A DNA stretch of 32,000 nt from Psychrobacter sp. DM4. GTDB taxonomy: Bacteria; Pseudomonadota; Gammaproteobacteria; Pseudomonadales; Moraxellaceae. This document shows positions 1,728 through 30,968 of this stretch, piece by piece. Position 1 is the first letter of the stretch. Every line of letters begins with the position of its first letter. The position numbers and the translations under genes are program-made. The DNA lies in the NCBI RefSeq assembly GCF_051307035.1, contig NZ_CP195536.1, positions 300,001-332,000 of the forward strand, read 5' to 3'. Below the pieces are notes generated by a model. It was not told the origin of the DNA, searched no databases, and saw nothing but the letters and a program-made list of their open reading frames with translations.

Positions 1728-2252
1728 ATGAAGAAGACAGTACTAAACGCATCACTATGGACAGCATTGCTCATCGGCTCAGGTATAGCTCTTAGCGCTT
1801 GCGGCGGCAGCGTAGAAGGTTCTCATGATGTTTTGGCTGTTGAACGCGTTAACGATGCGGCAAATCTAGCTCGTGCAAATGCTCCTGAAGCCGAGGATTT
1901 TGAATTTCCAGCAACGACGCCGATGGTTGTTGCTGAGACGGCTACTACAGATGAGATGGCAATGGCAACAGATATGCCCGTAGAAGCTGGCGCGCCTGCA
2001 GAGGACTTGGCGGTCAATGTCGGTGCTGAGCTTTATAACAATCAATGTATGGCCTGCCATGCAACGGGTCTACTCAATGCTCCCAAATATGGTGACGCAG
2101 CAGCTTGGGCCCCTCGTATCGCAAAAGGCGTCGATACGCTAGCCTCTCATTCTGCAAATGGCTTTAATCAGATGCCAGCACAGGCTTATAATGGTGTGAC
2201 CGAAGCACAAATTCGTCAAGCTGTTGAATATATGATTGAGGCGGCTAGCTAG
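1728..2252 (+). CDS. Lipoprotein-anchored cytochrome c5-family monohaem cytochrome
   Basis: The CMACH haem-binding motif is followed by ...NAPKYGD.. and ..GFNQMPA.., typical of cytochrome c5. I place the start at the internal ATG at 1728, which gives MKKTVLNASLWTALLIGSGIALSAC, a signal peptide plus LSAC lipobox. The 1617 start in the ORF track adds an implausible leader. An acidic Ala/Thr/Glu linker precedes the haem domain. Confidence 0.85.
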   Translation: MKKTVLNASLWTALLIGSGIALSACGGSVEGSHDVLAVERVNDAANLARANAPEAEDFEFPATTPMVVAETATTDEMAMATDMPVEAGAPAEDLAVNVGAELYNNQCMACHATGLLNAPKYGDAAAWAPRIAKGVDTLASHSANGFNQMPAQAYNGVTEAQIRQAVEYMIEAAS

Positions 2253-2286
2253 TACAAGCTTATAAGCTATTGAAATTTGCTAAACT

Positions 2287-2320
2287 GACCGTCATTGTGG
2301 GTGCACAGTGACGGTTTTTT
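2287..2320 (+). terminator. Rho-independent terminator after the cytochrome c5 gene
   Basis: The stem CCGTCATTGTG / CACAGTGACGG has one mismatch and is followed by T6 at 2315-2320. Confidence 0.7.
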
Positions 2321-2386
2321 ATGGCTACTCTTTTGCTAATAACTATAGAATAACCCAATTGGTAGCGAGGCAAAAGTCACTATAAA

Positions 2387-2435
2387 GTATGAAGTATGAA
2401 GTATGAAGTATGAAGTATGAAGTATGAAGTATAAA
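2387..2435. repeat. Heptanucleotide tandem repeat: (GTATGAA) x6 plus one degenerate unit GTATAAA
   Basis: Six perfect units were counted directly, at 2387-2428, and then GTATAAA at 2429-2435. The tsaD start context GGTATGAAGGTA at 2445-2456 is itself a further near-copy. Confidence 0.95.
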
Positions 2436-2446
2436 GGGGTGAGGGT

Positions 2447-3496
2447 ATGAAGGTATTAGGGTTGGAGACCTCTTGTGATGAGACGGGTCTGGCTATTTTT
2501 GATAGCGAGCAGATTAATAGTGATAATAAAGGTCTGATCGGTCAGGTATTGTACTCTCAAGTAGAGCTCCATGCCCTCTACGGCGGCGTGGTACCTGAGC
2601 TTGCCAGTCGTGACCATATTCGCAAACTGGTACCACTACTTAACGAATTGCTTGCGCAGTGCGGTATCAAAAAAACCGACATTGACGCCATTGCTTATAC
2701 CAAAGGTCCAGGTCTTATCGGCGCACTGATGACAGGTGCGCTATTTGGTCGCAGCTTGGCTTATGGTTTAGATATTCCAGCGATTGGGGTGCATCATATG
2801 GAGGGGCATTTGCTCGCGCCGCTTATGGGTGCAAATCCGCCGCCTTTTCCCTTTGTATCTCTATTGGTCTCTGGTGGTCATACGCTCCTGATTGCCGCAC
2901 ACGGTATCGGGGAGTATGAGATATTAGGTGAATCGATAGATGATGCGGCAGGAGAGTGTTTTGATAAAGCTGCTAAGATGCTAAGTCTGCCTTACCCTGG
3001 TGGTCCCAATATCGCCAAACTTGCAGAAACTGGCAATCAAAAGGCCTACGCCTTACCGCGTCCTATGCTCCATCGCGGGTTAGATTTTTCTTTTAGCGGG
3101 ATGAAAACAGCGGTGCATAATCTGATCAAAGATACAGATGGCTCAGGAACTGGCTCCGATAGCGATCCAAAAGTTCGAGCTGACATTGCAGCAAGCTTTC
3201 AACATGCGATGGTCGATACCTTAGTCAAAAAATGCGTCAAAGCACTCAAACAAACCGATATGAGTCGTTTAGTTATCGCAGGCGGGGTCAGTGCCAATAC
3301 TCATTTGCGTGAAACGCTAGAAACTGAACTGGCGAAGATAGACGCCACTGTACATTATGCACCGCCTGCGCTGTGTACTGATAATGGGGCGATGATAGCC
3401 TATGCAGGGTATGAGCGCTTACAAGCGGGGCAGTCTGATGATCTGGCCGTAAGCTGCGTACCACGTTGGCCGATGACCGAACTGCCAGCACTTTAA
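2447..3496 (+). CDS. tsaD: tRNA N6-adenosine threonylcarbamoyltransferase (t6A synthesis, Kae1/Gcp family)
   Basis: The product runs [19 protein letters not shown]...[12 protein letters not shown]...LLVSGGHT..., the canonical TsaD motifs including the HxxxH metal site. It is 349 aa. Confidence 0.95.
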
Positions 3497-4614: not shown

Positions 4615-5754
4615 ATGTCATCTATCATTTTTCACAATCCGAGCTGCGGCACCTCTCGCAATACCTTAGCTATTATGCAGGCGTCAGGTGAGCAGCCGAA
4701 TGTCATTGAATACCTCAAGACACCGCCTACTCGTGAGTATTTGCTTGAGCTGCTAGCTTTGATGACACTTTCGCCACGCGAGCTATTACGTCGTAACGGG
4801 ACGCCTTATGATGAGTTAGGTCTGGATAATCCTGCGTTGTCTGACGATGAGCTGATTGATGCCATGATGGCGCATCCTATCTTGATCAACCGACCTATTG
4901 TGGTGACCTCTAGCGGCGCCGCGTTGTGTCGACCTTCGGAGAAGGTGTTTGAGCTATTGGACAATCCAGTGAATCATTTCACTAAAGAAGATGGCGAAAT
5001 TGTTCAATCTACTCAAGATAATGCTTCAGACTCTTTTATCGAGTTAACTGACTTACCAAATATAGAGGCATCGGGGCTACAGCCGATTGATATCGATGCT
5101 TTAGTTGGTGCAAATGATCCCCGTCATTCCCCTAAAATACTAGTGTTATATGGCTCACTACGCGCGCGCTCATTCTCTAAATTAGCGAGCGAGGAAGCCA
5201 GTCGAATATTGCGTTGGTTCGGTTGCGAGGTACGCACCTTTGATCCTACAGGCTTACCATTACCTGATAGTACCGATACTGATCATCCAAAAGTACAAGA
5301 GTTACGTGAGCTAGCAATGTGGTCAGAGGGCATGCTGTGGGTGAGTCCTGAACGTCATGGCAGTATCACTAGTATTATGAAAGCGCAGATCGATTGGATT
5401 CCCCTATCATTAGGCGGCGTTCGTCCGACTCAAGGTAAAACGCTTGCTGTCATGCAAGTTAGCGGTGGTAGTCAGAGCTTTAACACGGTCAATCAGCTGC
5501 GTATTTTAGGCCGATGGATGCGTATGATTACGATACCTAATCAGTCGTCTGTGCCAAAAGCTTTTTTAGAGTTCGATGACAATGACCGTATGCTCAATTC
5601 ACCTTTATATCAGCGTATTGTTGATGTGTGCGAGGAGCTAGTGAAGTTTACATGGCTCACACGTGGTCGCGCAACTTATCTCACCGATCGCTATTCTGAG
5701 CGCGTAGAGAGCAGTGAGGAAGTCTCACAGCGCGTCAATAAAAAATCGCTTTAA
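4615..5754 (+). CDS. Fusion protein: glutaredoxin-type arsenate reductase ArsC (N-terminal ~120 aa) joined to the NADPH-dependent FMN reductase ArsH (C-terminal ~230 aa)
   Basis: The N-terminus [15 protein letters not shown]...[11 protein letters not shown]...LCRPSE...FTKEDGE aligns end to end with R773/E. coli ArsC. From about residue 150, LPNIE...[17 protein letters not shown]...WVSPERHGS...[21 protein letters not shown] is a full ArsH. The two halves form a single uninterrupted 379-codon frame. Confidence 0.85.
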
Positions 5755-5810
5755 ACTCCAGTATGTATCGTTAACCTTTTTCAGTACCCTTGTTTTACTA
5801 AGGCCTCTTT

Positions 5811-7121
5811 ATGCTCGCATTAGCGATTTTTATCGTCACCTTGACCTTAGTGATATGGCAACCCAAAGAACTAGGTATCGGTTGGAGTGCCATGGGCGGC
5901 GCAGTAGTCGCCCTACTGTTTGGGGTGGTACAATTATCAGATGTTAGCATCGTCTGGGACATCGTTTGGGATGCCACCTTTACTTTTGTCGCGCTCATCA
6001 TCATCTCCTTACTATTAGACGAAGCTGGGTTTTTTGGTTGGGCGGCATTGCATGTGGCAAGACTAGGAAATGGTCAAGGTCGACGATTATTCCCTATGAT
6101 TGTTATTTTAGGCGCATTTATTGCAGCCTTTTTTGCTAATGATGGGGCGGCGTTACTCCTCACCCCTATTGTCATTGCCATTTTATTACGCCTTGATTTT
6201 GCACCCAAATCAGCTTTAGCCTTTATTATCGCCACGGGCTTTATTGCCGATACCGCAAGTTTGCCGTTAGTGACGTCTAACTTAGTCAATATCGTTAGCG
6301 CCAATTATTTTGATATAGGTTTTGGTCGCTATGCTCTCGTTATGGTGCCCGTCAATATCGTCTCTGTTATCGCAACGCTAATAGTCTTGTGGCTTGTCTA
6401 TGCACGACATATCCCAAAGCATTATTCGATGGCTAGTCTGAGCTCACCGCAATCTGCGATCAAAGATCCTTTAGTATTTCGAGCGGCCTTTCCAGTATTA
6501 GCCTTATTATTGACTGCTTATTTTGCTACTGAGTCGTTAGGTATCGTGATTTCAGTGGTAACGGGAGCTGCGGCGCTAGTGCTTATGGCAATCGCTGGTC
6601 GCTGGTGGCAAGGGGGTCGCGATACCAAGTTTTCTGTGACGCAGGTGCTGCGCAAGGCTCCTTGGCAAATCGTCTTGTTTTCGATCGGTATGTATTTAGT
6701 CGTTTATGGTTTAGGTAATGCAGGACTCACGGCATATGGCGCGCAAATACTGAATGGGTTAGGACAGCAAGGGGATGTTATTGCGACAATCGGTACCGGC
6801 TTTTTATCAGCTATCGTCGCGTCTATTATGAACAATATGCCGTCAACGCTTATCGGCGCACTGGCTATTGATAGCGCTCAAGTTCCTGCGGCAACGCGTG
6901 AGTTAATGATTTATGCCAATGTTATTGGTAATGACTTGGGGCCAAAGTTCACCCCAATTGGTAGCTTAGCAACCTTGTTATGGCTACATGTACTCGCGGA
7001 AAAGGAGTATAAAATCAGCTGGGGTCAGTATATAAAAGTTGGACTAGTCATAACACCGCCAGTACTCCTCGCGACGCTGTTAGCTTTAGTAATTTGGTTG
7101 CCTATGTTACCCAGCGTTTGA
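5811..7121 (+). CDS. arsB: Arsenite/antimonite efflux permease, ArsB family
   Basis: [32 protein letters not shown]...[16 protein letters not shown]...[22 protein letters not shown] is collinear with E. coli ArsB. It is 436 aa and polytopic. Confidence 0.92.
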
Positions 7122-22542: not shown

Positions 22543-24075
22543 ATGATGCCACTGCCGTACAGTTTTGCAAAACGCCATCAGCTTTTAGTCGTGCTCGCTA
22601 TCGACCCTGAGGTGCCGCCAACCTTGGTACTAACCAAAGCAACGCCTTTGTCTGCTATTAATGAGGCGATGCGGTTTTTGCAGCAGCAAGGCGTGCGCAG
22701 TATACCCAATTATGAAAGTATTGACACAGATAACTTTGAAAAAAGGCTCAATGCGCTCTACGCCAATAATACGGGCGAATCTCAACATATCGCCGCCGGT
22801 TTAGAGGATCATCCTGATCTAGATAGCCTAGCCGATAGCGTTCCTGAAACTGAAGATCTCATGGATAGCCAAGACGACGCGCCCATCATTCGCCTGATCA
22901 ATGCGCTACTGTCCGAAGCCATTCGCCTAAGTGCGTCAGACATTCATATCGAAACCTTTGAGAAGCGCTTGGTGGTTCGTTTTCGCGTCGATGGAGAGCT
23001 CAAAGAAATCATCACTCCAAAACGTCAACTAGCGCCGCTTTTGGTGTCACGAATAAAGGTCATGGCCAAGCTCGATATCGCCGAAAAGCGCGTACCGCAG
23101 GATGGACGTATTAGCTTGCGGCTAGCAGGGCGTGAGGTTGATGTGCGCGTATCAACGCTGCCATCAAGTTTCGGTGAGCGCGTGGTGATGCGTTTGCTTG
23201 ATAAGCAAGCAGGCCGATTAAATATGACTTATTTAGGACTTGCAGATAACGATTATACCGAGCTCAAACGTCTGATTCATCGCCCGCACGGTATCATCTT
23301 GGTCACAGGGCCTACCGGTTCAGGCAAGACGACGACGCTATATTCAGCACTTACTGACCTCAATGATCAAACGCGTAACATCTTGACCGCAGAGGACCCG
23401 ATTGAATTTCAGCTAGATGGCATTGGACAGACGCAGGTTAATAGCAAGGTCGATATGACCTTTGCTAAGAGCCTACGTGCGATGCTTCGTCAAGATCCTG
23501 ATGTGGTGATGGTCGGTGAGATTCGTGATATCGAGACCGCTGAGATTGCAGTGCAAGCGTCACTAACGGGACATTTGGTGCTCTCAACGTTACACACTAA
23601 TACCGCAATCGGTGCGGTTACGCGCTTGCAGGACATGGGTGTTGAACCATTTTTATTGTCTTCGTCCTTGATTGGTGTAGTGGCGCAGCGACTAGTACGT
23701 ACGCTGTGTACTCATTGTCATACTTGGCAAATAGCGGATAGTGAACAGACCAAACTCTTTGATGAAATCAACTTAGATGTAAGCATGAACGAGGGTGTTA
23801 TTAAGCTACCAAAACCTGTCGGCTGTGATAAGTGCAATCAGTCCGGATTTAAAGGACGTACGGCGATATATGAGGTCGTGCCCATCGATGATCCTTTGCG
23901 CCGAATGATACATAGCAATACCGCTGAGTACGAGCTTGAAGCCTATGCTCGCTTGCAAACGCCATCGATTCGCGCAGATGGCTTGCACAAAGTAATAGCA
24001 GGACGAACGACATTGGAAGAGGTGTTGCGAGTGACCAAAGAGAGCGCTACAACTGATGATATTGTTATCGGGTAG
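22543..24075 (+). CDS. gspE: Type II secretion system ATPase GspE
   Basis: The N-terminus LPYSFAKRHQLLV is a GspE N1 domain. Walker A is GPTGSGKTT. The Asp box, Walker B and His box (MVGEIRD.ETA..A..A..TGHLVLSTLHTN) and a tetracysteine CTHC...CDKC motif are all present. Confidence 0.9.
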   Translation: MMPLPYSFAKRHQLLVVLAIDPEVPPTLVLTKATPLSAINEAMRFLQQQGVRSIPNYESIDTDNFEKRLNALYANNTGESQHIAAGLEDHPDLDSLADSVPETEDLMDSQDDAPIIRLINALLSEAIRLSASDIHIETFEKRLVVRFRVDGELKEIITPKRQLAPLLVSRIKVMAKLDIAEKRVPQDGRISLRLAGREVDVRVSTLPSSFGERVVMRLLDKQAGRLNMTYLGLADNDYTELKRLIHRPHGIILVTGPTGSGKTTTLYSALTDLNDQTRNILTAEDPIEFQLDGIGQTQVNSKVDMTFAKSLRAMLRQDPDVVMVGEIRDIETAEIAVQASLTGHLVLSTLHTNTAIGAVTRLQDMGVEPFLLSSSLIGVVAQRLVRTLCTHCHTWQIADSEQTKLFDEINLDVSMNEGVIKLPKPVGCDKCNQSGFKGRTAIYEVVPIDDPLRRMIHSNTAEYELEAYARLQTPSIRADGLHKVIAGRTTLEEVLRVTKESATTDDIVIG

Positions 24076-24131: not shown

Positions 24132-24860
24132 TTATAGATTCTCGTCTTTCTTATCGTCATCTGCGTGATCGCTCTGCTCATTGTCACTCTGAGTATTAGC
24201 GTCAAGCGTTGTGTCTGAGGAGTTATCAGTCTTGCCTTGGCGCCGTGCTTCCAGCTCAGATTTAGGTATCCATGCCCATAGCATCTCGACGGTAATAGGG
24301 TCACGATCGCTATCAGACTCACGATCCTCAATAACACAAGGAATGACCATTTCGCCTTTTGGGGTATCCAAGATATGTTGGCGCTGCTCATCAGAGAGAC
24401 TGGCTACCGCGGCGATTTGACCTTTTTTGATGGGTCGATAGAAATTTACTGAGTAAGATTTTATCAATAGCACTCGATCAGAGGGCAGATTCAAACCCAA
24501 AATAAACCCAGTCGCTGTCTCTGCTAGTAAAGTAATTGCCACCGCATGAATAGAGCCAATATGGTTTTGTACCGCTTTGTCATTGTCTAAGCTGACGATG
24601 ACTTGGTTAGGATCAACGGTCTCATAGCAGATACCTGTCGTACCGACATAAGGCACCACTTTGCCAAAGGCTTTTGATAAAATCTTGGAGCGCGCCGCTG
24701 ATGGTAAATACTTGGTGATAGATAACAGCTTGGTAAATTGATTATTAATAGGCTTTAAGCTGCTTTTTGGTTGATCCAATTGCATGCTAGTAGTATCAGA
24801 TACTTTGACTGGTAGTTTTTTGGCCAGCTTTTTTGGTAACTTTTTAAATAATCCTGACAT
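24132..24860 (-). CDS. Hotdog-fold thioesterase-like protein (DUF4442/PaaI-like core) with a basic N-terminus and an acidic C-terminal tail
   Basis: The core NHIGSIHAVAITLLAETATGFILGL...SYSVNFYRPIKKG resembles the DUF4442/YiiD-C hotdog pattern. The N-terminus is MSGLFKKLPKKLAKKLPVK. The tail is ...DNEQSDHADDDKKDENL. Confidence 0.65.
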   Translation of the reverse strand: MSGLFKKLPKKLAKKLPVKVSDTTSMQLDQPKSSLKPINNQFTKLLSITKYLPSAARSKILSKAFGKVVPYVGTTGICYETVDPNQVIVSLDNDKAVQNHIGSIHAVAITLLAETATGFILGLNLPSDRVLLIKSYSVNFYRPIKKGQIAAVASLSDEQRQHILDTPKGEMVIPCVIEDRESDSDRDPITVEMLWAWIPKSELEARRQGKTDNSSDTTLDANTQSDNEQSDHADDDKKDENL

Positions 24861-25114
24861 ACAAGATCCCTCAAATTGAGCATAATGATAGATTGAATAT
24901 ACTGTAGCTTAGCGCGCTTAACTTAACGAGCTTGAATCTAGCAACTATAAACTTATCGACGCCAAAACTAGCCATTTTAAATCTAGAGCGCTTAACTTTA
25001 GCAAACTAAGCTGATAACAGTATTGATAAACATATTACCTCAATCGATATCGGTCTGTCATTTTTACCTTGAACTTAGGCGCTCATATAGTCGCCATCTA
25101 TACCCCTTATCTCA

Positions 25115-26518
25115 ATGAACCTACTGGAGCCTGATTTGCCAACTCTCCCTACCAATATTATTTATACTGGCGTCGCAGGTACCGGCAAAACTCACCGTTT
25201 ACTACAAATAGCTCAGCAGTATACTGACTACCTACCGCACATAGATAGCGAGCATTTGCTTATGCAGCTATTACAAGAGCGCAGCTGGCGCGAGGTGATT
25301 TGTCTTGTTTTTTTGGAGAGGCAAATCCAAGGACAGGACTTGATCAAAGTGCCAGAGCTGATAGAGCATGAGTTTTTTTGGGCCAAAGCGGCGCAAAACG
25401 AGCGTGATAAACATTTAGGCAGCACCGCTTGGTCGGTGCTACAAATGCACAGCCCAGTAGAGTCAAAAACGGTCAGTATCGACAATAGAGCGGGGCAAGC
25501 TTACTTTGACAAAAGTGACAGCGGCGCTTGGTATTTATTGCCAGATATTGCGTCACTATCTGTGCTAAAACAGCAACTACAAGAGTATCAGCAAGCGTGC
25601 GCTGACACTACCTCAACGGCGTTATACCAACAGCGCTATAGCATGGTCAGCTTTCATCAAGCTTATGGTTACGAGGAGTTTGTAGAGGGGATAAGGCCTG
25701 TTGTTAGTGCAAACAAGCCATCGCAAGTGAGCTACGACATTCAGGACGGGGCATTCTTAAAACTATGCCAGCGTGCGCTACGTGACCCCGAACAGCGCTA
25801 TGCTATCTTGATCGATGAGATCAACCGCGCCAATGTCTCACGTGTATTTGGTGAGCTGCTGAGTCTCATTGAACCTGATAAGCGCTTGGGTTTGCCTAAT
25901 GCAATGACTGTCAATTTGGCTTATTCTGGGCGAGCCTTTGGTGTACCTGCCAATGTCGATATCTACGCCACGATGAACACTCAAGATCATTCGCTTGCGC
26001 CGCTAGATATGGCATTGCGTCGACGTTTTCGTTTTATCGATTGTCCGCCGCAGCCTGCATTGTTATCCATAATACAGGTGCCTGATACTACAAAAAGCGG
26101 CGCAGATGAGATCGATCTGAGCAAAATATTATCAGGTATAAATACTCGTGTCATACAGACGCTTGGGTCTGATGCGCAGCTGGGTCATGCGTTCTTATGG
26201 TCTGTGACGACCCTTGAGCAGTTACAAAGCGCACTGATCGAGCAAATCATTCCTCAGTTAGTGCAAGCGGCTGATGGGCAGCTCACTATTTTGCAGTATA
26301 TCTTGAATGATGAGCAGCAGCCTACAAGCGCGCAGTTTATTCAAGATCACCATTCGTTATTAGAGACGAGCGATACTTCTTTAAGACAGCAAAGCCCTAT
26401 GAACCAAAACGCGTTCTTAGGGCAGTCTATGAGCCTAAGTAGTTATACGATTAATGCTGAGCTTATCGCTAGGAGTGGCGAATTTGCCAAGCCGTTCGTT
26501 TATCAGCGCCTTTATTAA
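25115..26518 (+). CDS. mcrB: McrB-like AAA+ GTPase subunit of a type IV (modification-dependent) restriction system, with atypical architecture
   Basis: Walker A GVAGTGKT lies at residues 19-26. The McrB-family blocks follow later: FHQAYGYEEFVEGIRP, Walker B AILIDEINRANVSRVFGELLSLIEPDKR, NTxD-type ATMNTQDHS and ALRRRFRFI. An in-frame TAG at 25088-25090 prevents any N-terminal extension. Confidence 0.85.
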   Translation: MNLLEPDLPTLPTNIIYTGVAGTGKTHRLLQIAQQYTDYLPHIDSEHLLMQLLQERSWREVICLVFLERQIQGQDLIKVPELIEHEFFWAKAAQNERDKHLGSTAWSVLQMHSPVESKTVSIDNRAGQAYFDKSDSGAWYLLPDIASLSVLKQQLQEYQQACADTTSTALYQQRYSMVSFHQAYGYEEFVEGIRPVVSANKPSQVSYDIQDGAFLKLCQRALRDPEQRYAILIDEINRANVSRVFGELLSLIEPDKRLGLPNAMTVNLAYSGRAFGVPANVDIYATMNTQDHSLAPLDMALRRRFRFIDCPPQPALLSIIQVPDTTKSGADEIDLSKILSGINTRVIQTLGSDAQLGHAFLWSVTTLEQLQSALIEQIIPQLVQAADGQLTILQYILNDEQQPTSAQFIQDHHSLLETSDTSLRQQSPMNQNAFLGQSMSLSSYTINAELIARSGEFAKPFVYQRLY

Positions 26519-26539
26519 TTCAGTGAATACGGCTCAAAT

Positions 26540-27964
26540 ATGAACAGCTTCTCAACGATCACAGTCTTTGAACATCAGTATTTAACAGAGCGAGATTTTG
26601 TATGGACGACAGATTTTGATTGGCTACTAAGCGAAGAATTAACAGTATTTACTATCAAGCGCAAACAAGGTCAATGGCAGCTCAAAGTAGGACATTATGT
26701 AGGCATTGTTTTGCTGCCAAGTGGTAGTATGCTTGAGATTTTGCCCAAACCTATCATAGAAGATGAAGGGGTAGATAAGACGAATAATAGCCTCGCACAG
26801 ACGCGCCTATGGGTACAAGCTATGCTAATAGCGCTCACTGATTCCAACCAATTTTCACGTAGCACCAAGAATTTTGGGCACTTAAGCGCGCATTTAGCGC
26901 CCTTTGCTTCGAGAGCATCACCAACAGCGCCTCCGTTATCAGAATGGCTAGTTACCCAGTTCCTTCAGCACCTGTCTTATTATCGACCAAGTAGCCAGTA
27001 TCAAACGCAGATCCGCAATGAGACACTTATGCAAGGTAAGCTGATGATTAAGGAGCAGCTCAAACGCAATAGCCATCAGCCGCACAAGTTTGTCTGTAAC
27101 GTTAGTACGCTAGGCCAAGACGCTATCGCTAATCGTTTGATTAAGAGCGCGCTTGTGCTGCTTGAGCCTTTGCTAGATAAGTCTATGCCAATGACCGTAT
27201 TGCGACCGTGGCGACAAATAGTAGCGCTTGATCGTCATGAGCGCTATCAGCTGGACAAGGTATACAAACAGGCAAAGTATCAACTCGTCAGTCAGTCGCT
27301 AGGGTTACCTCAGCGGCGCGGCGCGCAGCAGCTGTTAGATTTGGCTTACTGGTTACTCAAGCAATCGGATATGGAGGCAGGTAGCGGCCTTAATGGTCAA
27401 AGCAAGTTTGGCTCATCCAAAATGCGCTTGTGTATCCTTTTCAATATGAACCAAGCCTTTGAGCAGTGGGCAAGCCTGAGTATCGCAGCTAGGCTTAGGA
27501 CTATTAATCCCAACTACGAGCCACTGTATCAAGCGCAGAGCCTATGGCTGAGTGATGAGGCAGGGCAGACTCGGTTGTCCATGCGACCTGATTTGTTGAT
27601 CCGTCACAAAGATCTCAAATCTCAGCACCTGATAGCTAAAGCCGATACAAATCTAGAGAATCGTTGTAGCCACGTGATCGATATCAAATGGAAGGCTATA
27701 ACCCAAGCGGGCGCAATAAAAACTGGCGATGCCTATCAGCTAACCAGCTACGCGCAGGCTTATCGAGCCAAACACATCTGGCTTGTATACCCCGTACTAG
27801 GTGATGGTAGGCAACCTATGGCGCTGCAGCAACGACACAACATAGAGTCAAGGCAACAAGACAAGACTCAAAACCCACCTTTTGTTAAGCTATGGCTTAT
27901 GCCGTTCAATGTGCTAAAAGGTGAGCTCAATGGCGAATTTGTCAGTGACCATCCTTATAAGTAA
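26540..27964 (+). CDS. mcrC: McrC-like subunit with a C-terminal PD-(D/E)xK nuclease
   Basis: It starts 21 nt downstream of mcrB. ANRLIKSALVLLEPLL parallels E. coli McrC ANRIIKSTLAIL. The C-terminal MRPDLLI...HVIDIKWK...AYQLTSYAQAY...IWLVYP parallels METDITI...IVDAKYY...LYQLMNYL...LLIYP, the D...DxK nuclease core. The N-terminal LPSGSMLEILPK block is also present. Confidence 0.8.
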   Translation: MNSFSTITVFEHQYLTERDFVWTTDFDWLLSEELTVFTIKRKQGQWQLKVGHYVGIVLLPSGSMLEILPKPIIEDEGVDKTNNSLAQTRLWVQAMLIALTDSNQFSRSTKNFGHLSAHLAPFASRASPTAPPLSEWLVTQFLQHLSYYRPSSQYQTQIRNETLMQGKLMIKEQLKRNSHQPHKFVCNVSTLGQDAIANRLIKSALVLLEPLLDKSMPMTVLRPWRQIVALDRHERYQLDKVYKQAKYQLVSQSLGLPQRRGAQQLLDLAYWLLKQSDMEAGSGLNGQSKFGSSKMRLCILFNMNQAFEQWASLSIAARLRTINPNYEPLYQAQSLWLSDEAGQTRLSMRPDLLIRHKDLKSQHLIAKADTNLENRCSHVIDIKWKAITQAGAIKTGDAYQLTSYAQAYRAKHIWLVYPVLGDGRQPMALQQRHNIESRQQDKTQNPPFVKLWLMPFNVLKGELNGEFVSDHPYK

Positions 27965-28167: not shown

Positions 28168-28244
<77 letters not shown>

Positions 28245-28255
28245 TCTATTTTGAG

Positions 28256-28275
28256 AGCCTTACAGGCTTTTTTTT
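28256..28275 (+). terminator. Short hairpin plus T-run after tRNA-Pro (weak terminator or processing signal)
   Basis: AGCCT-TAC-AGGCT is followed by T7-8. The stem is only 5 bp. Confidence 0.3.
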
Positions 28276-28331
28276 ATGTATAATGGTTTTGTTATCTTTT
28301 TTTAAACCTACTATATAAAAAGCCCTTAAGA

Positions 28332-28408
28332 GCGCCTGTAGCTCAGCTGGATAGAGCATCTCCCTTCTAAGGAGGTGGCCGCAGGTTCGAATCCTGCCAG
28401 GCGCACCA
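28332..28408 (+). tRNA. tRNA-Arg (anticodon UCU)
   Basis: Folded by hand: acceptor GCGCCTG/CAGGCGC, D-arm GCTC-AGCTGGATA-GAGC, anticodon stem TCTCC/GGAGG with loop CT-TCT-AA, T-arm GCAGG-TTCGAAT-CCTGC, and an encoded CCA. Confidence 0.92.
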
Positions 28409-28447
28409 TTTAGCCTGCAAATTTTGCCTATCGTTGGCATCAGTTAT

Positions 28448-28524
28448 GGCGGTTGTAGCTCAGTTGGTAGAGCCCCGGGTTGTGATCCTGGTGGTCGTGG
28501 GTTCGAGTCCCATCAGTCGCCCCA
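28448..28524 (+). tRNA. tRNA-His (anticodon GUG) with G-1
   Basis: Folded by hand: the extra 5' G (28448) opposes discriminator C, which is the His identity feature. The acceptor is GCGGTTG/CAGTCGC with two G-U pairs. The anticodon loop is TT-GTG-AT, the T-loop is GGTTCGAGTCC, and the CCA is encoded. Confidence 0.9.
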
Positions 28525-30002: not shown

Positions 30003-30968
30003 ATGACTCAATCGACGTCCGAATCAAATAATGATAGTCAGCAAAGCGCCTTGGTCTCTCATACCTTGGTACATGACCGTCATAGTGCTACTCAGAATAG
30101 TTCAGTAGACAAGACGGCGCTGCTTGCTTTGTTTATCACTGATACAACTATAGATACTCAATTAAATGATTCAGAGCTGGCATCTAGTGTGGTGGATCAG
30201 CGCCTAGCGCTATATCATACTCAGCACCAGCGCACGCAGCAGCTTTATACGGTCGCCGCTAGCACGCGACCGACGTACTTGGTACAGACCCTAAAAACCC
30301 AATTCGCCGAGTACCAGCACTATCTACTGGCACAAAATCTCGATAAACGCGGCCTTATTGACACTCAGCCTTTAGAGCGACTTTGGCAACAATTACACGT
30401 GGTTGATGATATCGTTGCCGATATCGTGCGCCATATGCCCGCCCAGCAGCCAGCAGGGTGGCAGCTTACCTCTCAAGACGGTCAAAACCCGCTACGCCTG
30501 CCAACTATCGGCAAGCTCAAAAGCTCTAAACCGATAGCAGACAAAGCCAGTTTGAATAACTATGTACTGAGTCACTTTGGCGTGAGTAGCTTCACTTATG
30601 ATCGCGGCTATTATATCGGTCACGTGGTCGGCTATTTATTTAGCTGTTACTTTTGCGCGCATTTATCAGTCAGCTATAATGTCACCGCCCTTAGTGAACA
30701 AGCAGTGAGTGCCTACGAGTACGCTAGTCTTGAGACGCCCCATATGGTCAGACTATTACAAGGATTGGATGGCTACTGTAAAAAGCGAATTTATCAGCTG
30801 GCAGTCATCTGTGCGCGCTTGAGCGTTTATGCGACAGACAAACGCATCGAAAAAATGCTTATCGCAGAGGTCAATGACTTCGACAAAAAATTGCAACAGC
30901 AGCACTTGGATGTGTTGCTGCTTCAGGGCATGATGCCTGAGAGCAATGACTCAACGCCCTTATTCTAG
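30003..30968 (+). CDS. Hypothetical protein (321 aa), no recognisable family
   Basis: This is a long clean ORF. An in-frame TAG at 29991-29993 fixes the ATG at 30003 as the first start. It ends 51 nt before gspF on the same strand. The N-terminus is Ser/Gln/Thr-rich and the middle is Gln/Leu-rich and helical. An aromatic, Cys-containing segment GHVVGYLFSCYFCAHLSVSY is also present. Confidence 0.6.
   Translation: MTQSTSESNNDSQQSALVSHTLVHDRHSATQNSSVDKTALLALFITDTTIDTQLNDSELASSVVDQRLALYHTQHQRTQQLYTVAASTRPTYLVQTLKTQFAEYQHYLLAQNLDKRGLIDTQPLERLWQQLHVVDDIVADIVRHMPAQQPAGWQLTSQDGQNPLRLPTIGKLKSSKPIADKASLNNYVLSHFGVSSFTYDRGYYIGHVVGYLFSCYFCAHLSVSYNVTALSEQAVSAYEYASLETPHMVRLLQGLDGYCKKRIYQLAVICARLSVYATDKRIEKMLIAEVNDFDKKLQQQHLDVLLLQGMMPESNDSTPLF

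Follow-up and report, generated by a model that had tools for sequence, protein, structure and literature searches.

How does an McrBC-type nuclease engage its DNA when the McrB motor has no N-terminal reader? This question is raised by two adjacent genes at positions 25115 to 27964 of a 32,000-nucleotide stretch of the Psychrobacter sp. DM4 genome (contig NZ_CP195536.1, positions 300,001 to 332,000 of the forward strand), hereafter the window. A sequence-only reading had described the genes as an McrBC-type restriction module whose McrB lacks the modified-DNA-binding domain and carries about 145 residues of unassigned sequence after Walker A, and had proposed that target recognition has moved into this insert. 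Here we report that the McrBC pair is real and that the inference of a relocated reader is weakened. The unusual architecture is genuine, yet it is common to a broad, undescribed McrB subfamily, within which the reader-less state, judged from sequence comparison, is a derived feature of the Psychrobacter clade. We slightly favor, at a little better than even, the reading that the pair encodes a functional two-gene McrBC-type nuclease driven by the hydrolysis of nucleoside triphosphates (NTP), in which the insert would be a conserved accessory module and the reader would have been lost secondarily.

Results

The gene pair encodes an McrB motor and its McrC partner

The two open reading frames (ORFs) are separated by 21 nt, and their coordinates, together with the McrB and McrC profile matches of their products, bear out the proposed operon. 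The parts of the pair, all on the plus strand, are as follows.

25088-25090, plus strand: in-frame TAG, the upstream limit of the McrB N terminus, read in the sequence 27 nt 5' of the ATG at 25115.
25115-26518, plus strand: McrB-like AAA+ NTPase of 467 amino acids (aa) without an N-terminal reader, assigned from the AAA_5, NCBIfam McrB and T. gammatolerans McrB (TgMcrB) matches and from an AlphaFold2 model.
25169-25192, plus strand: Walker A motif GVAGTGKT, residues 19-26, with invariant residues in the alignments.
25223-25630, plus strand: insert of ~136 aa, residues 37-172, between helix alpha1 and strand beta2, outside AAA_5 and the McrB structures.
25631-26044, plus strand: AAA+ core from beta2 on, residues 173-310, assigned from its motifs (IDEINRA 233-239, MNTQDHS 287-293, LRRRF 301-305).
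26045-26374, plus strand: lid domain, residues 311-420, from the precomputed Pfam assignment PF28529 (McrB_lid) and alignment to the TgMcrB lid.
26375-26515, plus strand: Gln/Ser-rich low-confidence linker (about residues 421-443), then a conserved C-terminal element (444-467), from the predicted local distance difference test (pLDDT) score and the family consensus.
26540-27964, plus strand: McrC-like protein of 474 aa with DUF2357 and a PD-(D/E)xK nuclease, from PF10117.
27590-27688, plus strand: predicted nuclease catalytic motif RPD351 ... D381-I-K383, invariant in 79 McrC sequences.

McrB has the motifs GVAGTGKT at residues 19-26, FHQAYGYEEF at 180, IDEINRA at 233, MNTQDHS at 287 and LRRRF at 301. 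The Pfam AAA_5 profile (E value, 1.7e-12) covered residues 167-305 only, corresponding to profile positions 20-139, and the NCBIfam McrB model gave a partial match (E, 1.8e-34) that aligned only from residue 172 on. A search of the PDB sequences found TgMcrB at an E value of 8e-43, and the E. coli and T. gammatolerans McrB chains again aligned only from residue 172. Because neither the AAA_5 and NCBIfam McrB models nor the McrB chains of the PDB align before residue 167, the stretch of ~150 residues between Walker A and FHQ is real, in keeping with the spacing of about 145 residues that had been claimed.

In an alignment of 89 relatives, N14, I16, G19 and G22-T26 were invariant, and Walker A was also invariant in 80 Psychrobacter-clade sequences. 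The AlphaFold2 model of McrB, built from the 89-relative alignment, had a mean pLDDT of 91.4 and a predicted template modeling (pTM) score of 0.81, with pLDDT values of ~97 around the P-loop. When this model was compared with the PDB by Foldseek, TgMcrB was found at an E value of 2e-20, with ~380 of ~390 columns aligned, and E. coli McrB (EcMcrB) at 7e-16. The invariance and the superposition support the earlier assignment of the P-loop at residue 19, and the N-terminal GTGKT is the true AAA+ Walker A.

The absence of an N-terminal reader was also confirmed: 18 residues precede Walker A, and no alternative start (ATG, GTG or TTG) was seen in the sequence between the in-frame TAG and the ATG. 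In the AlphaFold2 model 13 residues stand ahead of beta1, and the N-linker is absent. In E. coli and T. gammatolerans McrB, it is the N-linker that recognises the guanine base and confers GTP specificity; the linker residues D176 and F178 of EcMcrB lie ~25 residues ahead of Walker A (PMC7680126). The pi-stacking position directly after the P-loop (residue 27, 25193-25195) is His here and in 2 other genomes and Tyr in 77 of the 80 sequences.

Walker A and Walker B, N288, D291 and R302-R304 are invariant in the 80 Psychrobacter-clade McrB sequences. In McrB proteins the MNxxDRS loop takes the place of sensor I, and the neighbouring sensor-II-like and finger arginines, here in LRRRF, share a single helix. 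The Arg-to-His change noticed in the signature MNxxDRS is present, H292 being found in 79 of the 80, although at a position that makes an interface contact and is not catalytic. The catalytic residues of this loop are the Asn and the Asp, while the Arg (R337 in EcMcrB, R414 in TgMcrB) makes a trans contact at tight interfaces, and the R337A substitution raises the basal GTPase activity threefold (PMC7680126). A literature search on R337 returned nothing relevant. The change to His reads as a regulatory or interface variant and apparently entails no catalytic defect.

An ~80-aa Gln/Ser-rich C-terminal tail had also been claimed, but most of it is McrB lid domain, with an alignment to TgMcrB that reaches residue 436. 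Model confidence is low only at about residues 421-443 (pLDDT below 50 at 424-439), whereas residues 444-467 are modelled confidently (pLDDT, 87-96) and conserved in the family, whose consensus has a C-terminal Y...Y..IY pattern. PF28529, which is listed for every homologue, was considered as the insert and rejected because it is "McrB_lid", the C-terminal lid; a literature search for this accession found nothing. The CoCoNuT/NxD branch is defined by an NxD signature one residue shorter and by coiled-coil fusions (PMC11090510). In the Psychrobacter protein the signature N288-T-Q-D291 is NxxD, and the AlphaFold2 model has no N-terminal coiled coil.

The partner protein is an McrC by several measures. 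PF10117 (McrBC/DUF2357) matches its residues 48-418 (E, 1.4e-34), TgMcrC is matched at an E value of 0.0023, and all 79 Psychrobacter McrC sequences keep D351, D381 and K383. It aligns colinearly with the McrCs that accompany the E. faecium and E. coli homologues described below. Among Psychrobacter orthologues, the ratio of nonsynonymous to synonymous substitution rates (dN/dS) was 0.170 for McrC and 0.139 for whole McrB. McrC had been described as extended, but 474 aa is normal for the family: TgMcrC has 458 aa, the partner McrCs of long relatives have 427-428 aa, and E. coli McrC, which lacks part of the scaffold, is the short outlier (PMC7680126). The protein is ~45 aa longer than the partners encoded at L082:5268-6551 and L083:5358-6644, and the extra length consists of several short insertions (e.g., ~118-130, 227-233 and 285-293) and no added domain. 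R260, suggested by a four-sequence alignment as the stimulatory basic finger of McrC, was rejected as it is not conserved among Psychrobacter orthologues; K246 is a candidate basic finger residue.

The insert is shared by a broad McrB subfamily

We used the insert alone as the query against 1.84 billion representatives (E values up to 0.001, clusters at 50% identity). The 164 matching clusters placed the insert mostly 150-850 residues into proteins of 570-1170 aa. When 150 listed clusters were checked for motifs, both Walker A and FHQ were recognisable in 97, and in all 97 of these the gap between them was 136-171 residues (median, 147). Fewer than 70 residues precede Walker A in 12 of the 97 clusters and at least 150 in 80; long N-terminal regions are present in ~85%. 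All of ten long members showed the same split AAA_5 pattern, and one (P0195) also carried an EVE domain. A 1146-aa protein of an E. faecium conjugative plasmid, encoded next to an McrC, has MrcB_N/DUF3578 at residues 12-183 (E, 6e-47) and is colinear with the Psychrobacter McrB from Walker A via the insert to the lid; a 691-aa E. coli homologue resembles the E. faecium case.

Because the same insert coexists with MrcB_N/DUF3578 and EVE readers in relatives, it would be a module of the motor that marks a subfamily and not a relocated reader, as the favored reading has it. The position of the insert, its conserved residues and the colinear McrC partner are shared throughout the subfamily. On the other hand, most members have N-terminal regions of 130-750 aa (MrcB_N/DUF3578 and EVE among them) and the loop MNTADRS, whereas the Psychrobacter clade has no such region and reads MNxQDHS; subfamily examples sit on plasmids near restriction-modification genes, whereas the Psychrobacter pair is chromosomal.

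In a neighbor-joining tree of the shared region, the reader-less proteins formed one clade nested among the long forms and sister to two proteins with ~175-182 aa ahead of Walker A. The canonical loop MNTADRS is found in the long forms, and QDHS-type variants only in the short clade. Since the reader-less forms are nested among long ones, the N-terminal domain was probably lost, and a single loss in this clade would be the simplest reading.

The sequence-only reading would have yielded to an architecture both widespread and functionally described. The insert is indeed widespread, but we found no description of its function, nor of this particular insert, in the literature; Bell et al. 2024 (eLife, PMC11090510) noted insertions in McrB GTPase domains only in general terms.

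The insert is a discrete, conserved domain

When residues 36-172 were modelled alone by AlphaFold2 from 56 diverse sequences, the insert gave a pLDDT of 93.1 and a pTM of 0.86; within the whole McrB model its pLDDT was 91-98. In the predicted secondary structure, five helices are followed by a two-strand hairpin and then by a long C-terminal helix, an order compatible with a winged helix. Foldseek searches of two libraries returned MarR, ORC/Cdc6 winged-helix, forkhead, IclR, H1 and Z-alpha neighbours, all of them weak (E at least 0.08, template modeling score at most 0.43), and comparison of the insert profile with Pfam and the PDB sequences gave no credible match (best, eS19 at E 1.4). As to the winged-helix-like look that had been noted by eye, the insert is a discrete folded domain whose neighbours are nearly all winged-helix proteins, but the similarity itself is weak.

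The conserved positions of the insert in the 89-relative alignment are W58, V79, W106, L109, V120, F131, K133 and W139, and the family consensus has T.W..LQ.H in the third main helix and FDK...W.L in the hairpin. Its net charge is -8 here, with an acidic family median of -3.5 and a helix-hairpin core that is approximately neutral, and K91, R97, R125 and K133 are basic in 75-100% of insert sequences. Among Psychrobacter orthologues dN/dS was lowest in the AAA core (0.061), followed by the insert (0.079), the lid (0.166) and the C-terminal 47 residues (0.263).

These data bear directly on the proposal that the insert is a target-recognition domain which replaces the lost N-terminal reader and chooses the DNA to cut. 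The insert is the sole non-motor domain of the Psychrobacter McrB, it has a winged-helix-like topology, and it is under strong purifying selection; moreover, Bell et al. proposed in generic terms that specificity domains are what the insertions of McrB GTPase domains encode (PMC11090510). However, a substitute reader is hard to reconcile with an insert that occurs beside the bona fide readers MrcB_N and EVE, in a family where long N-terminal regions prevail. Specificity elements usually vary, yet the putative recognition helix (T.W..LQ.H) and wing (FDK...W) are conserved from phylum to phylum, and the net charge is acidic. With a constraint on the insert like that on the core added to these points, the proposal is weakened, and we regard it as unlikely.

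The pair is an old resident of the Psychrobacter chromosome

A scan of species-representative genomes found 125 with a relative; the best 80 were nearly all Psychrobacter, two being metagenome bins with broader labels. We then fetched 81 loci (L001-L081) from other genomes carrying a relative. They cover 80 Psychrobacter-type species and count loci that hold the pair, not a share of all Psychrobacter species. The arrangement DUF4442-McrB-McrC (McrC where the contig allows) was identical in 81 of 81 loci, with the DUF4442 gene adjoining McrB in every one; gspE was found upstream in 74 and the AraC gene downstream in 71. With the window's own genes counted, 80 McrB and 79 McrC ORFs are intact, and the loci without an intact ORF are contig-end truncations.

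Pairwise McrB and McrC distances correlate with gspE distances (Pearson correlation, 0.87 and 0.92) as tightly as the housekeeping genes do among themselves (0.79-0.91). The pair diverges ~1.7-1.9 times faster than the AraC, DUF4442 and WS/DGAT genes and 4-5 times faster than gspE. Because synteny holds in 81 of 81 loci and the McrB and McrC distances track gspE, the pair is vertically inherited: it is an old, fast-evolving chromosomal resident of the genus and no accessory island. The earlier placement in an accessory block is therefore not sustained, given the same position in every locus and the co-divergence with the neighbours. A literature search for Psychrobacter and McrBC found nothing relevant. 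Genus-wide fixation is the most unexpected result of this analysis.

Such fixation could mean that the pair has been domesticated for a chromosomal, non-defence role, e.g., in the repair or processing of DNA, in chromosome maintenance or in the control of transformation. A fixed position in all 81 loci from 80 species, divergence alongside housekeeping neighbours, purifying selection with ORFs intact wherever the contig allows, a housekeeping neighbourhood without mobile or defence genes and the loss of the modified-DNA reader would all suit this explanation. There is also a precedent for co-option of an McrB-family protein in PcdA of S. aureus, which has reportedly been co-opted for cell division (PMC10602043). 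PcdA is likewise a chromosomally fixed member of the family, a likeness taken at title level only; the Psychrobacter motor differs in that McrC adjoins it and the catalytic motifs are invariant, which argues for a retained nuclease function. Indeed, NTPase and nuclease motifs are fully kept, as expected for restriction, the faster divergence of the pair than of its neighbours is typical of defence genes, the long relatives lie in mobile or restriction-modification contexts, and the 81 loci were counted by presence of the pair. Domestication away from defence thus appears rather unlikely.

The idea of an inactive remnant, in which a truncated McrB decays with its McrC, might be read from the missing N-terminal domain and linker and from His in place of Arg in the consensus loop, but it is effectively refuted and in practice excluded by selection (dN/dS 0.14-0.17 overall and 0.06-0.08 in core and insert), by catalytic residues invariant in ~80 species, by the 80 intact McrB and 79 intact McrC ORFs with contig-end truncations as the only exceptions, and by the confident AlphaFold2 model.

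Neighbouring genes and other observations

The pair lies between gspE (22543-24075) and gspF (beginning at ~31023), just 5' of a tRNA cluster, and the gene and tRNA coordinates agree with the site given before. Two features flank the pair.

24132-24860, minus strand: DUF4442 hot-dog thioesterase gene, a divergent neighbour and syntenic marker outside the system (PF14539; E, 1.2e-24).
28168-28524, plus strand: tRNA-Pro(TGG), tRNA-Arg(TCT) and tRNA-His(GTG), 3' of McrC (ARAGORN).

The gspE and gspF genes are split by ~7 kb that holds the DUF4442 gene, McrBC, the three tRNAs, an AraC/cupin regulator and a 321-aa protein, and this split is kept across the Psychrobacter loci examined. The 321-aa ORF (30003-30968), directly 5' of gspF, has no Pfam match and is 64-84% identical in 70 Psychrobacter loci; its product may belong to the secretion system as a component that has so far escaped recognition. 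Housekeeping genes make up the remainder of the window (YqeY, cytochrome c, TsaD, ars genes, an ABC transporter, MscS, dxs, IMPase and WS/DGAT), and no mobile or defence genes were seen in the McrBC neighbourhood. In the arsenic-resistance pair at 4615-7121, a fusion of ArsC and NADPH-dependent FMN reductase domains (379 aa) precedes an ArsB pump.

Promoter and terminator scans gave background level only, and PADLOC matched the AAA core with generic "REase_II" entries alone and did not detect McrC. A direct repeat of 15 nt, TAG(C/A)GCGCTTAACTT, lies between the divergent DUF4442 and McrB genes, with copies at 24910-24924 and 24984-24998, 74 nt apart. It was set aside as a regulatory site, its core GCGCTTAACTT occurring in none of the 83 other loci.

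CP195538.1 (L001), the closest relative genome, has two genes that are absent from the window (1849-3128 and 6630-7115 of that locus): an rve-family transposase gene, flanked by the inositol monophosphatase and WS/DGAT genes, and a RidA-like gene that separates gspE from the DUF4442 gene.

Discussion

The Psychrobacter pair shares with canonical McrBC (E. coli EcoKMcrBC and T. gammatolerans; PDB 6hz4 and 6ut3-6ut8) the AAA+ core, Walker A and B, the MNxxD loop, the RRR arginines, the lid and an operon in which McrC, with DUF2357 and a PD-(D/E)xK site, lies downstream. It differs in lacking a DNA-binding domain at the N terminus as well as the N-linker, in the ~136-aa insert and in reading DHS instead of DRS; also, the pair is fixed in the genus chromosome instead of lying in a mobile island.

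A closer parallel for the missing reader is the LlaI/BsuMI R2 motor, likewise an McrB-type motor without a fused DNA-binding domain and N-linker. Such reader-less R2 motors stay active and become nucleotide-promiscuous (bioRxiv 10.64898/2026.08.31.748284). The LlaI and BsuMI systems, however, have three genes, with a separate R1 DNA-binding protein, whereas in the 81 Psychrobacter loci the pair is flanked by the DUF4442 gene and tRNAs. No R1-like third gene was found at the Psychrobacter locus, where the upstream gene is the divergent DUF4442 thioesterase. In LlaI.R2 an insert of ~140 aa would not fit behind Walker A, because the consensus-loop Asn is already N147 in the numbering of the preprint (bioRxiv 10.64898/2026.08.31.748284).

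If the pair works as a functional nuclease with an accessory insert, a hexameric McrB, activated by McrC, would drive DNA cleavage by analogy with canonical systems, and McrC would cut with its intact PD...D-x-K site. In the AAA+ topology in general, the connection between alpha1 and beta2 lies on the outer rim of the ring. The insert would then occupy the hexamer's outer rim, the place taken by the N-terminal DNA-binding domains in solved McrB proteins. Because it is conserved across phyla while the N-terminal readers vary, the insert may bind something constant, such as the DNA backbone, a neighbouring subunit or McrC. We suppose that it makes this constant contact through the conserved K91, R97, R125 and K133, most likely to the DNA backbone or a partner subunit, and in the Psychrobacter clade, whose McrB would have lost both the N-terminal reader and the N-linker secondarily, it would be the only candidate nucleic-acid contact left in the motor. 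Since the N-linker is missing and the reader-less R2 motors are nucleotide-promiscuous, a less GTP-specific enzyme is predicted, with a relaxed nucleotide selectivity like that of the LlaI/BsuMI motors. The target rule is predicted to operate without a classical modified-base reader.

Several points weigh against this reading. The neighbor-joining tree behind a single loss of the reader carries no support values, an acidic insert is atypical for a DNA binder, and both the rim position and the clustering of K91, R97, R125 and K133 are predictions only. Genus-wide fixation at one locus is, in addition, unusual for a defence system, the role presumed here, and would also fit a role outside defence.

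A bolder possibility, which we hold to be quite doubtful, is that a reader-less McrBC survives at one site across Psychrobacter because it now acts via its conserved ring-inserted domain, either as a domesticated DNA-processing machine or as a restriction enzyme with a novel, reader-free way of engaging DNA. If that were true, the course that DNA takes around the McrB hexamer would be traced by the rigid insert. The way in which McrBC grips and translocates its DNA is a standing question in the field: the central pore is blocked by McrC, and the N-terminal readers are mobile and ill defined in all complexes solved so far (PMC7680126; bioRxiv 10.64898/2026.08.31.748284). A reader-less two-gene system with an extra domain predicted to be rigid on the motor would be a favourable structural target for this question, and the Psychrobacter system would also provide a test of whether GTP specificity depends on the N-linker alone. 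For the genus itself, synteny and vertical inheritance of a restriction-type system in at least 80 species are unusual among defence genes and raise the question of what retains the pair.

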